Of a stretch of DNA of 64,000 nucleotides, positions 3,494 through 40,465 are shown piece after piece. This DNA comes from Haliotis cracherodii (lineage: Eukaryota). Every line of letters begins with the position of its first letter. Positions within the stretch are counted from its first letter, which is position 1. The stretch covers positions 32,984,001 through 33,048,000 of the forward strand of contig NW_027266343.1 of the NCBI RefSeq assembly GCF_022045235.1. Direction: 5' to 3'. The notes below the pieces were generated by a model. The model worked only from the letters and a program-made list of their open reading frames with translations, was not told where the DNA came from and did no database searches. Made by a program: the position numbers and the translations under genes.

Positions 3494-4489
3494 ACAATAA
3501 TTCATTTTGTAATATCAGTAATTTGATTTACGTTTATTCTTATAAATAAATATAACGTGTGATATCAATAAATGTTACAGTATCATAAAATAAGGAATAA
3601 ATGGTAAATCTCATAGTTGTGAGGTCGTGCTGGCAGTTTGTGGAGTGAACTGATGTGCACAATAAAACGTAAATGACAGAATAATCAGTCTCAATTATCC
3701 ACCAAAACAGACGTAAAAGGCAAAATAGTGCTGAAAATAAGGAAAGATCACTGAACATCAGTGATTACACCCGCAACTCGCACAATTTGCATTAGCAAGT
3801 TAGTGTTTTTGGCCTAACGCCGCACAAGAGTACTCGACCTACGACGGTGCCTTGCGTTACCTTCGGGCGTAACGTCGGCGTAACCTACCCGTATACACTT
3901 TCTATTTTTTCGGGGTTGATTGTAAATATACAATCATGTCATCTATCGTTATATGTAGCGAACTGTCGGAGCAACGTACCTTGGCCGTGCCACGATCGTT
4001 AGTATTATACTTGGTTTTCAAACAGAATATTTATAATGAACCATTCGTCAATTCATGTTATCCTCCGACATTGAGACGACATACTATGACAGAACTTTCG
4101 TGGCACGAGATTGGATTTGTAACCTTTTAAGAACTGAAAGTGATATTTCATACCACGCGCCATGCAATTTATTATGTGTATATGTAAACAGGTCCACCAC
4201 CCGGTAGAGCGAATGTAATGTTTCAGCCGCACACCTTAACAACGACAGAATTCTCTGTTAATACACTTCATGTATTGATTCCGACAAAGGTCCCGACCCA
4301 GAGGGTGGTTCGTGCAGGTGCGTACTCAATCTCGGTATGCACCTCCCTCATCTAGTCCTACCCTGCAGCACCGTGTCGCAGTGGTTTATTAATGAGCAGA
4401 GATAGCAGGCATTGTCGCACTGGGTCGACTGTAATTTGTCATTGGCGTTGTGTCACTACTGCAGGTGAGGTAACCAAGCACTGTGTGTT

Positions 4490-4582
4490 ACGTCAGTGTA
4501 GACGTGGACAGGGACGTGGACGTTGACGACATTTACTCTGTGCAGAGTGAGTGATGTGAAGAGGCATCAAGACGTGTTTCAT
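4490..4582 (+). other. Possible 5'-UTR exon of the glycosyltransferase gene
   Basis: Locally GC-richer, non-repetitive segment with a TCAGT initiator-like motif at about 4493. A canonical donor GTAAGT at 4583-4588 could splice to the acceptor at 6345-6346. An alternative donor CAG|GTGAG lies at about 4464. Confidence 0.3.
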
Positions 4583-6008
4583 GTAAGTATGGTTTAAATG
4601 CATTTATAATCGGTATATACATGTATACATACACACAATCAATGACAGGATAAATGTACCTGTTGGTTTTGTTTGGATAAATTTCAACTATAACGTGGCG
4701 TCTACAAATTGTTGGGTTGATATTTGTATTCGTTACACTGACACAACCCCACTCCGCACGTGGGGACACTGTCTGAATTTAGTCGTGGTGCCTCCTGAGA
4801 ATTGCTGTAAATGGCGCTTAATACTGTTGGTAGATAATTAAAGGTTATCGTTCTTGGCACTGACTATTTTCATGGCGCTTCATTTAGCAGACACGCCAGT
4901 TTGAAGACCCCTTAAACAAACAAAATACAAGTTTAAAAACACATTGAACCATAAGCTTTAACTCATCACTCAATCTTGTTGTTAATTTACTGCGAAGCAA
5001 TTATCGATTCACTTGTACACCCAGAGATTTTTATCAGTTGTATTTATTAAATGATAAAAAGAAATATATGTCACATTGAGTGACGGTCCAACGAACATAA
5101 GCAAGTGTTGATTTACTGAATAAAACTCAACACCGCGCGCATATTTGCAGTTAACACGAACACTTATGATAGTTGCTCATCCTTTCCATAAAAAATATAT
5201 ATTTTAAAGAAACATATTTTCTGCTTAGTCGGATATTGACATTATTAAGTTGTTGGAATAATTGACACTTTAACAAAAGTATCAAATTTACAGATAGATA
5301 AAATTAATAATGTGTTCAAATAAACTTAGACTGATTATGTTTACATTTATTTTATTAGAAAACGTGATATCATAATGTTTTGGGAGAAATGAAAACTTCC
5401 AAAATAATCAAATATGCTCAACAAACAAGCAAACCATTTCAGCTCACCTTAACCTAAACACGATTTCATAACCGGAATTTTATACGAAATAAACTATGGT
5501 CCGATTCTGATGTTTATACTTTCATTTTTTGGCTGAGTATAATAACGGATGAGTAATTTCAAAACGACATGTTTAAACTACATGTTCAACTTAAGTTACT
5601 GGATAATTCCCACAGATACCTTCAGTGACGACCTCTATGCTTGGAGTTATACGCCAAAGGTGTCAAATATAGATCGTCTTTACATAATTATATTGTTTAC
5701 AATATTGTCAATATACTCACGTAGTGTTAGAGAGGATACATCATAACAATGTCTCTATATGAGCCAAAATGGATGCAGATTTAAGTTTATTTGAGGCAGG
5801 GGGAATATAGGGCTTGCTGATCAGCGTCATCATAATTCGCTGTGGCGTCAGTCAGTCGTTGGTTAAATGTCCCAGATCTGGCACGATTATGAACCTTGAT
5901 CTGACATGATCACTGGTTACAAAAAAAAACCGCTAAGCATCTACGACCTTCCTGCATAAAGCAGATGTGACGTGATGATACGGAATACTGAAATCGTCCT
6001 AAAAAAGA

Positions 6009-6289
6009 GGGGGCACGGGTGGCCCAGTCGTCTAAGGCGCCGCGATTCGCTGTGCAGAGTTGCGTCCCTTGGGCACGCCAGAAACCTATGATTGTGGGTT
6101 CGAATCCCTGTTCGCCCCGATTATGTTTCTAGGTTTGTCAGCACCATACCCCTGCTCGTGGGTTTCACCGAAGTGGTAAACGTCTGAGACCTGCATCATT
6201 CGGGCATTCCTCCCACATTAAGCTGAAACGCCGTGATATAACTGGAATAGTGTTAAAAGCGGCGTTAAACCAAACTCACTCACTCACTC
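6009..6289 (+). mobile_element. SINE family A, about 55 bp upstream of the GT32 splice acceptor
   Basis: Full-length copy with an approximate TSD (cctaaaaaaga / cctcaaaaaga). Confidence 0.88.
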
Positions 6290-6347
6290 CTCAAAAAGAA
6301 ATTCACGCATAAAAAGTAGTGTATATTGTGTTACATCTGTTCACAGG

Positions 6348-8867
6348 ATGTTCGGGAGAAGGACGATAAGGTGTTCCGCAAGACGTCGCATGTTCCTGAT
6401 GACCCTACTGGGCTGCTGTATACTTCTAGCTGTAGCTAACCTGATCAGGCTGTTGCAGGCACCGCATACTAGGAAACACTATCGAGGACGTGCTGGAAAT
6501 AGTAGAGCAAATGGCAAGAACGGAGCACCATACACAGGAATGCGCCGAAGGAAAGATTCTAAATCTGAAAGACTCAACCAGAATTATTCTACAGAAACAT
6601 TTGATCGTCAACCTTTTGCCAATATTCAGCAGAAAGGAATGCATCTGGATATATTCAGGAACAAATCTTGGAGCATCGTTCATCAAATGAAATCACCCGA
6701 TGATATAAGCCAGTACAATAAAACACCTAATTCCAAACAAAACCTGACTGTTCACTTCCTTCTTGGTGAGGATTCTTCCCATTTTGAAATCCACAACTTC
6801 CTGTCAGTATGGAGCGTGATGAAGTACATCCGTCCATGCAAAGTAATGTTCCATTGTCACGTGATCCCTATGACCACGCCGTGGTGGAGGCGAACCCTTC
6901 AGATAACCCCAAACAGAACCATTATCCCCTTAAACACCTCCGGGAAATATTCTCGAGATACGCCCAACACGAGGGATATGGTATGGAAGCACGGCGGGGT
7001 CATTGTTACACCGAACATCGTGTTCCTAAGGCATCTCCAAGATCTACAACGATTTGAAATGCTTGCTTACATTAATAAAGATAACGTAGGCATGCTGTAC
7101 TTATCAAACGTGTCCTCTACAAAAGATGTAGCTGATCTTATTGATGATACTTACAAAAAAGGTCAAATTGATTTTAGGAATATAATAGGACATATTGAGA
7201 AGAGGAACTTGCTCCGTCATGAGCAGGAGGATTCTTGGATGTGTCTGAATGATGCGCAGTTACCAGCTGCTGACAATCTGTTGAGGAATAAAACACTGGT
7301 CAGTATAGACGTGACCTATACGGCCTACAATCCACCACCAACACTGGACAACATCTACAGGTCATCGACTCAGATGGCGGCTATAGGTAGACAGGTCTTG
7401 TTTGAATCTACGGCCAAAGTTGAACGATCTGTACCCAACGTATTTCATTATCTGTGGAAAGAGGGCAGAGTCAGAGATCTAAACATGATGGAATTGTTGA
7501 GTATTAAAAGCGTTTACCATTTTGCAAATCCCAAAGAAATACGTTTCTATGGCACCGTTACCCCGTCCGGACCACGATGGGATGACGTCATGAAACTGCC
7601 GTCGTTTACGTTCATTCAAACAGATCCACCAGTGTCACGTGACAGCTGTATGGTGTGTGAGATACTTCATGATCATGGCGGTACCTTTATCAATTTTGAT
7701 GTTATTCTCACAGAAGGAGCAGATATATTTCGTCTAGGGTATAGCGTGAGGCTTGGCACTAAAGGTTCGGAATCTAATATCAGAATAGACTTTGGCCACA
7801 GATTACAGATTTTAACAAAAGAGGAGTTTCAGAAGCAACAACATCACGGGTGTTCAAACGTCGTCATGTCGATGGCGAAAGGGCATTATTTTGCAGTTAT
7901 CTGTCCACAAGTTATACATGTCGGCAATTCGAAGGGAATCACTTCCTGTTTGAATTCTACGTTTCTTCAAATATCTAGTCCAGATTATATAATACAGAAC
8001 GTGAGAAAGACATCAGTCGCTTCAGTAACAGGTTGTGTTGGAGAAGTAGCCAGATACGTGTTGTTTGGAGAGACAAACGCTTTTACAGAAGAAACATATC
8101 TCGTGCCAAACGTCATCCATTACATTTGGTTTGGGAAGGAAACACATTTTCATCTTCATATGTTTCTTTGTATTTACAGTGCATTCATTAACCAGAAACC
8201 AGATCACATATTCTTCCATTACGACCACTTACCGAAAGGGACGTGGTGGCAGACCTTGACCTTTGCAGTTAACTTGACCTTGGTGCGCACAGCGCCACCT
8301 ACTTCCGTCTTCGGGCGACCAATCAACGTGGTAGAACATCAGTCGGACGTCGCCAGGTTAGAAATTCTCAGGAAGTATGGCGGTATCTATCTTGATATCG
8401 ATGTGTTTGTAATCAACAGTCTTGACCCGTTACGAACACACAGTTTCGTAATGGCGGAGGAACAACCATCAACGTTAGGGAATGGCATCATTCTCTCTGA
8501 GAAGAATTCTAAATTTCTTGAGCTGTATTTGAACTCTTACAAACGTTTTAATGACTCGTTTTGGGGCTATAACTCCGTTGTTATGCCCTATTCAATAATG
8601 CTTCACAACAGGAATCTCATTCACCTTGGACCACGTGACAGAATCCTAAAACCTGATTGGTCGACGTGCTTGGACGACATATGGTACCCTGAGAGCAAGT
8701 ACTACTGGCAAGACAACTACATCCTACATCTTTACTGTAAGATGAACGTGGACAGAGATCTACCGTTCATGGATTCACTGATCTCTACACCCCGGTTCGC
8801 TACTTCCACTTTTGGCCAAATAGCCAACATCGTATACAAGCATTTTAAAAGAACTGTCGGCCATTAG
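6348..8867 (+). CDS. Type II membrane GT32 / alpha-1,4-glycosyltransferase-like protein (A4GNT/A4GALT/OCH1-like sugar-binding DXD domain), 839 aa, with three tandem modules
   Basis: Uninterrupted 2.5-kb ORF. A short basic N-tail is followed by a hydrophobic anchor (MFLMTLLGCCILLAVANLI) and a stem. The C-terminal domain has VPNVIHYIWFG, SDVARLEILRKYGGIYLDIDV, LGNGIILS and WGYNSV, all typical of GT32. An acceptor gttcacAG (6345-6346) lies just before the ATG. Confidence 0.9.
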   Translation: MFGRRTIRCSARRRMFLMTLLGCCILLAVANLIRLLQAPHTRKHYRGRAGNSRANGKNGAPYTGMRRRKDSKSERLNQNYSTETFDRQPFANIQQKGMHLDIFRNKSWSIVHQMKSPDDISQYNKTPNSKQNLTVHFLLGEDSSHFEIHNFLSVWSVMKYIRPCKVMFHCHVIPMTTPWWRRTLQITPNRTIIPLNTSGKYSRDTPNTRDMVWKHGGVIVTPNIVFLRHLQDLQRFEMLAYINKDNVGMLYLSNVSSTKDVADLIDDTYKKGQIDFRNIIGHIEKRNLLRHEQEDSWMCLNDAQLPAADNLLRNKTLVSIDVTYTAYNPPPTLDNIYRSSTQMAAIGRQVLFESTAKVERSVPNVFHYLWKEGRVRDLNMMELLSIKSVYHFANPKEIRFYGTVTPSGPRWDDVMKLPSFTFIQTDPPVSRDSCMVCEILHDHGGTFINFDVILTEGADIFRLGYSVRLGTKGSESNIRIDFGHRLQILTKEEFQKQQHHGCSNVVMSMAKGHYFAVICPQVIHVGNSKGITSCLNSTFLQISSPDYIIQNVRKTSVASVTGCVGEVARYVLFGETNAFTEETYLVPNVIHYIWFGKETHFHLHMFLCIYSAFINQKPDHIFFHYDHLPKGTWWQTLTFAVNLTLVRTAPPTSVFGRPINVVEHQSDVARLEILRKYGGIYLDIDVFVINSLDPLRTHSFVMAEEQPSTLGNGIILSEKNSKFLELYLNSYKRFNDSFWGYNSVVMPYSIMLHNRNLIHLGPRDRILKPDWSTCLDDIWYPESKYYWQDNYILHLYCKMNVDRDLPFMDSLISTPRFATSTFGQIANIVYKHFKRTVGH

Positions 8868-40119: not shown

Positions 40120-40465
40120 GACCGCCTCCGTGGTCTAGAGGTAGAGCGTCCGCCCGGGGAGCGGAAGGTCCGGGGTTCGACACCCGGCCGAGTCATACCA
40201 AGAGACATTAAAAGATAGTACCCTGTCTGGCGCTCGACTAAAACACGGACTTTCCGGTTCGGAATCAGCATACTGTGTCTGAGTGGGTTATTAATGTTAA
40301 ACTGCGACATGATATCGCAGTGGACAAGCACTATAAAATCGGCATAAGTCGGCATTAGTACGGACTAGATAGTACAAGCAGCCACACCCACCCACACGTG
40401 CATGCATATCGCTGTATTAGGGCAATAATCTTTGAACCCACGTTAAACCCCATTTCATCTTACCT
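40120..40465 (+). mobile_element. SINE family D
   Basis: Head CCGCCTCCGTGGTCTAGAGGTAGAGCG...GGTTCGACACC; body homologous to 22871-23230. Confidence 0.75.

Follow-up and report, generated by a model that had tools for sequence, protein, structure and literature searches.

Locus and protein layout

We analysed a window of 64,000 nucleotides from Haliotis cracherodii (contig NW_027266343.1, positions 32,984,001 to 33,048,000, forward strand), and the subject of this report is by far its longest open reading frame (ORF), which runs without interruption from 6348 to 8867 on the forward strand and encodes 839 amino acids (aa), the intact frame claimed by the original prediction from this sequence. 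The product (P0001) is a predicted glycosyltransferase with three GT-A-like modules in tandem, laid out as follows (positions are those of the window).

6345..6347, + strand: likely splice acceptor, with AG at 6345-6346; the coding exon would start at 6347, 1 base 5' of the ATG
6348..8867, + strand: coding ORF for P0001, which is predicted to be a type II membrane glycosyltransferase with a tandem of three GT-A modules
6390..6446, + strand: predicted type II signal-anchor (aa 15-33), one hydrophobic segment behind a basic N-terminus
6453..6743, + strand: stem (aa 36-132), fast evolving, which serves as an internal control for a passive spacer
6744..7424, + strand: module 1 (aa 133-359), degenerate GT-A, with T-P-N in place of DxD at 7008-7016
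7425..8096, + strand: module 2 (aa 360-583), degenerate GT-A, with N-F-D in place of DxD at 7692-7700
8097..8867, + strand: module 3 (aa 584-839), intact and GT32-like, with HQSDVAR at 8337-8357, DID at 8394-8402 and His794 at 8727-8729

The Kyte-Doolittle maximum over 19 residues is 2.45 and lies at aa 15 of P0001. In contigs of two sequencing runs from two studies, the alignment to the window starts at 6347 and is preceded by 26 and 50 other letters; that these and the other runs are RNA is a guess, as none of the runs with the gene is recorded as such. A contig start directly after the AG is a hint that the transcript is spliced and that a single exon carries all of the coding sequence. Contigs from three related organisms (runs likewise guessed to be RNA) cover most of the ORF, no listed piece spanning all of it, and run X1 yielded no contigs aligned on the ORF. 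A segment at about 4470-4582 ends in a good donor-like site (CAT/GTAAGT) and may represent a first, non-coding exon of this gene.

Homology of the three modules

The three module starts described in the original prediction lie where it had placed them (LTVHFLLG at 6744, VPNVFHYLW at 7431 and VPNVIHYIW at 8103), as do the motifs KHGGVIVTPNI (6987-7019), DHGGTFINFDV (7671-7703) and KYGGIYLDIDV (8373-8405, with DID at 8394-8402). Their homology stands above chance by BLASTP, by our own profile hidden Markov model (HMM) and by HHalign against shuffled profiles. Pairwise BLASTP gave E=2e-7 for modules 1 and 3, E=2e-11 for modules 2 and 3, and E=2e-5 for modules 1 and 2. We also derived an HMM from 89 homologues with a single module; it matched module 1 at 5e-12, module 2 at 1e-14 and module 3 at 8e-86. 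HHalign with the family profile scored 90 (98.1%) for module 1 and 102 (98.6%) for module 2, against maxima of 24 and 18, respectively, in 25 column shuffles per module. Clear homology of modules 1 and 2 is limited to the last helix and to the N-terminal half, where it ends shortly beyond the DxD position.

P0001 has a Pfam match to PF04488 in module 3 only (aa 662-699; 44.7 bits, curated cut-off 23), modules 1 and 2 having no Pfam match of their own, while our own HMM matches all three. In the ESM Atlas, modules 1 and 2 lie near PF04488 clusters at 0.94, which we treat as a lead only, since part-queries are uncalibrated and the top match may be the protein's own cluster.

Active-site residues

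Single-module proteins of the family (n=141) define a set of strongly conserved positions: in the numbering of P0001, H664 (128/141), D667 (130/141), R670 (132/141), D683 (138/141), D685 (137/141) and H794 (131/137). Every family-conserved active-site residue is present in module 3 (H664, D667, R670, D683-x-D685, N712 and H794), where H794 would, judging from conservation, be the equivalent of the family's C-terminal His. D667, R670, D683 and D685 have the same spacing as the donor-site residues D171, R174, D187 and D189 given for Och1 in the available text of PMC12312940.

The claim that DxD is intact only in module 3 proved correct, and the losses in modules 1 and 2 extend well past this motif. 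Both modules are without the donor-loop His and Asp, the Asn-Gly loop and the C-terminal His. Module 1 reads T-P-N at the DxD position and has no equivalents of H664, D667, N712 or H794; the sole active-site residue left is an Arg whose placement depends on the alignment (3/3 abalone sequences). In module 2 the H-x-S-D loop is deleted and the C-terminal His is gone, and six Cys are kept in the orthologues. Its DxD motif is indeed broken, but the second Asp of N-F-D (H-F-D in H. asinina and H. rubra) is still there, D685 being the only active-site residue left (3/3 abalone sequences). The scaffold columns H591, S611, P618, P629, W634 and G678 are mostly kept in modules 1 and 2. Loss of DxD alone is no proof of inactivity, as GT14 and bacterial GT6 enzymes have lost the motif and are still active according to the part of PMC7185993 available. 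Activity of modules 1 and 2 is nevertheless unlikely, because the DxD, donor-loop, Asn-Gly-loop and C-terminal His losses occur jointly.

Predicted structures

A model of the ectodomain reached a predicted local distance difference test score (pLDDT) of 75.9 and a predicted template modelling score of 0.67, with module 3 mostly above 90; the N-terminal halves of modules 1 and 2 lie mostly at pLDDT 63-91 and the C-terminal halves at 31-65. A model of modules 1 and 2 only reached pLDDT 64.8. Both models show a GT-A-like order of beta and alpha elements in modules 1 and 2, with pLDDT 63-95 in the N-terminal halves except for the lost donor loop. In the model of modules 1 and 2, ranges 1-223 and 232-445 each match folds that, judged by their titles, are GT-A or related nucleotidyltransferase folds. 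Module 3 is modelled with a GT-A fold nearest to solved GT32 structures, namely YeGT (8ovt; VIA Z 16.9, root-mean-square deviation (rmsd) 3.2, 190 aligned) and PaToxG (4mix; VIA Z 15.4, rmsd 3.0, 178 aligned), both described as GT32 structures in the available text of PMC12312940; Och1 was not among the matches listed. Of the three GT-A folds expected, that of module 3 was recovered; in modules 1 and 2 the N-terminal halves are modelled with confidence and the C-terminal halves are not, and the structural matches over both ranges are weak.

A sequence search of the PDB with P0001 found no match at E up to 1, and a profile search gave only weak matches in the DxD region. A prediction of a complex between modules 2 and 3, run without a supplied alignment, scored 0.00 and speaks neither for nor against contact.

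Conservation and selection among abalones

As the original prediction required, modules 1 and 2 are kept in orthologues from other abalones, named H. asinina (77%), H. rubra (73%) and H. rufescens, and the same three-module layout is found in H. rufescens and H. asinina. Against H. asinina, identity is 35/79 in the stem, 158/226 in module 1, 163/224 in module 2 and 225/256 in module 3; against H. rubra it is 43/80, 165/226 and 165/224 for stem, module 1 and module 2. Expressed as percentages for the two species, module 1 (70/73) and module 2 (73/74) exceed the stem (44/54), with Fisher p of 9e-6 to 2e-3. Gapped positions number 0-2 in modules 1 and 2 and 17-18 in the stem (18 against H. asinina, 17 against H. 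rubra). Even the C-terminal halves of modules 1 and 2 are 66-73% identical to those of the distant abalones. Protein differences from H. rufescens number 11/97 in the stem, 21/227 in module 1, 9/224 in module 2 and 5/256 in module 3. By these sequence comparisons, modules 1 and 2 are both constrained, less so than module 3 and, at depth, more so than the stem.

DNA differences come from one study of one related organism (two DNA-size runs); 40 of the 48 differences in 6738-8096 were listed, and module 3 lies outside this range. In module 1, 13 synonymous and 8 non-synonymous differences give a ratio of non-synonymous to synonymous change per site (pN/pS) of 0.18-0.24 (p ~1e-4 to 0.0012), or 0.42 (p 0.018) in the worst case, with all 8 unlisted differences counted against it; as far as these counts go, module 1 is under purifying selection. 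The sequence of the related organism contains an extra TGC, in frame, at 7241, and the extra Cys is found in H. asinina, H. rubra and H. rufescens as well, so this lineage lost one Cys of module 1.

Dead and live tandems in the family

A search of the same genome with module 3 gave 46 matches, from which 21 long ORFs were examined as paralogues: 8 singles with DxD, 2 singles without it, 1 triple in which each of the three modules has DLD, and 10 doubles. In the doubles, the first module is without DxD in 10/10 and the second has it in 8/10. Searching with a profile of the doubles recovered relatives from Gigantopelta, Patella, Littorina, Batillaria, Babylonia, Physella, Candidula, Plakobranchus and the bivalve Sinanodonta, whose first modules are dead as well, and by these matches the family of doubles is spread across several gastropod orders. 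Among deuterostomes there are degenerate-degenerate-intact triples in amphioxus (P0005, P0004), degenerate-intact doubles in hemichordates and an intact-degenerate double in Styela (P0044). Across the aligned modules, a set that is query-biased and includes near-duplicates, DxD is intact in 134/141 singles, in 11/58 first and 49/57 second modules of doubles, and in 2/6, 2/6 and 5/5 of modules 1, 2 and 3 of triples. The rarity implied by the original prediction is not supported, as dead and live tandems are common in this invertebrate subfamily. The three-module architecture it described was found in Haliotis, but no such orthologue outside the genus was seen in the homologue search or among the best 150 of 3103 profile matches.

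The dead modules have conserved residues of their own. In 40 dead first modules of mollusc doubles, two C-terminal Cys (C159, 40/40; C172, 39/40), P181 (40/40) and several scaffold residues are invariant or nearly so, with D683 kept in 4/40 and D685 in 3/40. The second Asp is kept in 7/7 degenerate modules of the deuterostome type. Replacements of the first Asp differ among lineages (G, N, S, P), and no conserved basic substitutes were seen.

Several paralogues merit mention in their own right. The triple with three DLD motifs is a 964-aa protein (L004, G000:C9:5246942-5250607), and a near-identical inverted copy of it lies at about 5.809-5.811 Mb of the same contig, with the frame broken inside module 2 (L009/L013/L018). 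Four paralogues without any intact module (L031, L032, L033 and L035, on G000:C78, C14 and C9) are candidate stand-alone pseudo-glycosyltransferases; among them are singles with EYD and doubles that have DFS or DHN, and no H-x-x-D, in the second module. A tandem cluster of four near-identical single-module genes (L005, L007, L008 and L010), one with a TGA stop, lies at 48.20-48.31 Mb of G000:C3. In three Branchiostoma annotations (P0004, P0200 and P0201) a nucleotide-sugar transporter (PF04142, SLC35A-type) is fused before the degenerate-degenerate-intact triple, which would be a transporter-transferase fusion if real and a merged gene model otherwise.

Origin of the degenerate modules

In our quick trees, one of them with 98 rows, the live modules of gastropod doubles (support 100) and of deuterostome tandems (98) form separate clades, and module 3 falls in neither; these separate clades favour several origins of dead modules. 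The branches of modules 1 and 2 are long and not firmly placed, and a tree of the N-terminal halves lacks resolution. Module 1 scores 46-52 bits against the HMM of gastropod dead modules and 45-49 against that of singles, and the Asn at its second-Asp position is common to 20/40 gastropod dead modules, while module 2 scores better with singles and deuterostome dead modules. An approximately unbiased (AU) test with modules 1, 2 and 3 as one clade gave p=0.046, a borderline rejection in a quick tree with long branches. A mosaic origin of the abalone triple is possible on this evidence. That all dead modules go back to one ancient event was hinted at by support of 92 in one tree; as the grouping was gone without the active-site columns and C-terminal halves and in the 98-row tree, we make no such claim.

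Neighbourhood in the window

Upstream, an open frame at 244-726 on the forward strand matches NNMT/PNMT/TEMT methyltransferases (PF01234, E 1e-27) and probably corresponds to the final exon of the preceding gene. A high-copy repeat resembling a short interspersed element (SINE) occupies 6008-6289, ending about 57 bases 5' of the likely splice acceptor, with a similar copy at about 2271-2550. The repeat, presumably of tRNA origin, has very high contig depth in 4/4 runs. ARAGORN detects a tRNA-Pro (ggg) at 40124-40195 on the forward strand, which may be SINE-derived.

Interpretation

The ORF product would be a Golgi-type membrane glycosyltransferase in which module 3, the sole module with catalytic residues, likely transfers a sugar from a nucleotide-sugar donor in the Golgi lumen, by the Mn2+-dependent retaining mechanism expected from knowledge of the family. 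Modules 1 and 2 would be inactive yet folded GT-A domains held by selection as helpers, which may present module 3 with its acceptor by docking or positioning it. From sequence, we consider it probable that module 3 is active and that modules 1 and 2 are inactive but functionally retained; acceptor docking is put forward tentatively, by analogy with the enzyme B3GLCT. Taken as a whole, the picture of a module 3 transferase served by two folded dead helper domains that dock or position its acceptor is the one we favour, and on balance it seems likely. A kept scaffold with a remodelled yet conserved C-terminal half fits an acceptor-cleft role, as in B3GLCT, or a stability role, as in COLGALT1, and would be possible for a passive spacer as well. 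The lectin-like, processivity or spacer roles and the part in mucus or shell glycan synthesis that the original prediction suggested are treated here as conjecture.

A number of results weigh against the helper reading. The C-terminal halves of modules 1 and 2 are poorly modelled, and the structural matches of both modules (VIA Z of at most 8.1, rmsd 4.4-5.0 and ~170 aligned for module 2; at most 7.0, rmsd 3.2 and 100 aligned for module 1) fall in the tool's range for common arrangements. The models are moreover partly circular and not independent of the sequence result, because the alignments placed paralogous modules on modules 1 and 2. With the C-terminal half alone, HHalign scores 20.1 for module 1 against a shuffle maximum of 19.6, and 32.9 for module 2 against 18.2, the latter from the last 27 columns only. 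Most family members work with a single module, so the fold itself can do without helper domains, and an open frame through modules 1 and 2 is required anyway for translation of module 3. A frameshift lies inside module 3 of the H. rubra record, which ends in another frame, through assembly error or real loss. One species pair stands behind the pN/pS values, and in module 2 the 7 synonymous and 12 non-synonymous differences give 0.49-0.65 (p 0.11-0.25, not significant), rising to 0.97 if all 8 unlisted differences are non-synonymous in this module. Neutral evolution, which the original prediction had named as a refutation, is contradicted by the purifying selection on module 1, but module 2 is not significantly below neutral. 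Divergence from H. rufescens points the other way, with module 1 near the level of the stem and module 2 favoured.

Several of these points would be expected if modules 1 and 2 were decaying duplicates that serve as a folded spacer only and persist because the frame from the anchor to module 3 runs through them, with selection only against misfolding. The nearly unrecognisable C-terminal halves, the pN/pS of module 2 and the stem-level divergence of module 1 from H. rufescens support such a spacer, as do the long stem branches of modules 1 and 2 in the tree (2.4-2.6 changes per column) and the restriction of three-module orthologues to Haliotis in the searches above. However, both modules are far more conserved and far less gapped than the stem in two distant abalones, C-terminal halves included, and dead modules with near-invariant residues of their own are retained across gastropod orders, so we regard a mere spacer as unlikely. 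Less likely again is that the dead modules are built-in partners for folding, stability or oligomerisation, similar to GT1 of COLGALT1 or to Cosmc, in which case module 2 might still bind a cation or nucleotide but catalyse nothing. Conservation centres on the nucleotide-binding scaffold of the N-terminal half, and the second Asp persists in module 2 of 3/3 aligned abalone sequences and in all the deuterostome-type degenerate modules; GT1 of COLGALT1 binds Ca2+ and uridine diphosphate galactose (UDP-Gal) for stability (available text of PMC12003778), and Cosmc, without DxD, works as a chaperone (available text of PMC7185993). Yet both Asp are missing from module 1 and from most dead modules of molluscs, and single-module relatives fold alone. 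Finally, modules 1 and 2 might still transfer sugars, by a mechanism that needs no metal or is altered in some other way, making the protein a multi-step enzyme. The GT14 and GT6 precedents and the DLD triple of the same genome, by which multi-active versions exist, speak for this, but the joint loss of donor-loop, Asn-Gly-loop and C-terminal His residues and the lineage-specific replacements at the first Asp make it highly improbable.

Beyond the helper reading, one could imagine that invertebrate GT32-like enzymes have repeatedly recruited duplicated catalytic modules as acceptor-recognition domains, yielding a large unrecognised family of pseudo and active tandems. The abalone triple would then be a mosaic, with a module 1 from the gastropod dead-domain lineage and an independent dead module 2 acting as two reader domains that select the glycan or glycoprotein for module 3. 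We offer this broader scenario as a doubtful one.

Comparison with known systems

The original prediction had compared the protein to A4GALT and A4GNT, which we take to share PF04488 with DxD and a type II membrane layout. Their defining domain is presumably Gb3_synth (PF04572), C-terminal to PF04488; it was found neither on P0001 at E up to 10 nor in any of 67 aligned family members at E up to 0.01 (0/67), so by this criterion the protein is not of the A4GALT/A4GNT type and the comparison is not supported. Some relatives' records are auto-named alpha-1,4-N-acetylglucosaminyltransferase, which is a database label and not a tested function. The PF04488 core, with D-x-x-R followed by D-x-D at the same spacing, is shared with Och1, PaToxG and YeGT, which differ in having one GT module each and other substrates (available text of PMC12312940). 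At 17% identity to GT32 enzymes, the substrate of module 3 cannot be inferred.

Fusions of an inactive to an active GT-A domain are known from a few human enzymes. Here a whole invertebrate subfamily repeats the arrangement, with one to three modules and with all-live, dead-live and dead-dead-live versions in one genome, a natural series in which the rise and the role of pseudo-glycosyltransferase domains can be studied, and its members are candidates for the enzymes behind mollusc-specific glycans. Present interest in the triple is limited by its being a single abalone gene. In our literature search over titles and opening abstracts, which left most subscription papers and supplements (B3GLCT Table S1, genome-paper tables) outside its scope, no paper was found on tandem or pseudo modules in invertebrate GT32/PF04488 proteins or on chains with two dead modules. 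Pseudo and active GT-A tandems are thus already known, none having been found in that literature for this family or with two dead modules.

The tandem PF04488 proteins of gastropods, amphioxus, hemichordates and Styela are alike in setting one or more degenerate modules beside an intact module of the same subfamily. They differ in that their live modules fall in separate supported clades without abalone module 3, and the dead modules of the amphioxus triples are much less eroded than those of the abalone. COLGALT1 (GLT25D1) also has a non-catalytic N-terminal GT-A domain followed by a catalytic one; in contrast to abalone module 1, which has no acidic motif, its GT1 still binds Ca2+ and UDP-Gal (available text of PMC12003778).

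B3GLCT, which together with COLGALT1 is the nearest known kind and is the precedent studied in most depth, is likewise a same-family GT-A tandem in one chain, with an N-terminal domain without DxD and C-terminal His and a catalytic C-terminal domain (available text of PMC13597200). The abalone ORF has the same kind of layout, with same-family GT-A domains lacking DxD and the C-terminal His placed N-terminal to the active one. B3GLCT differs in being an inverting GT31 enzyme of the endoplasmic reticulum with one dead domain against two here. On origin by duplication of the protein's own domain, the comparable grouping of the three abalone modules has the AU p=0.046 given above, from a quick tree with long branches. 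In B3GLCT, solved with its acceptor, the dead domain is used for substrate selection: it forms the acceptor cleft and is essential for acceptor binding (available text of PMC13597200). Acceptor docking is demonstrated there, and by analogy with it modules 1 and 2 of the abalone protein may present the acceptor to module 3.

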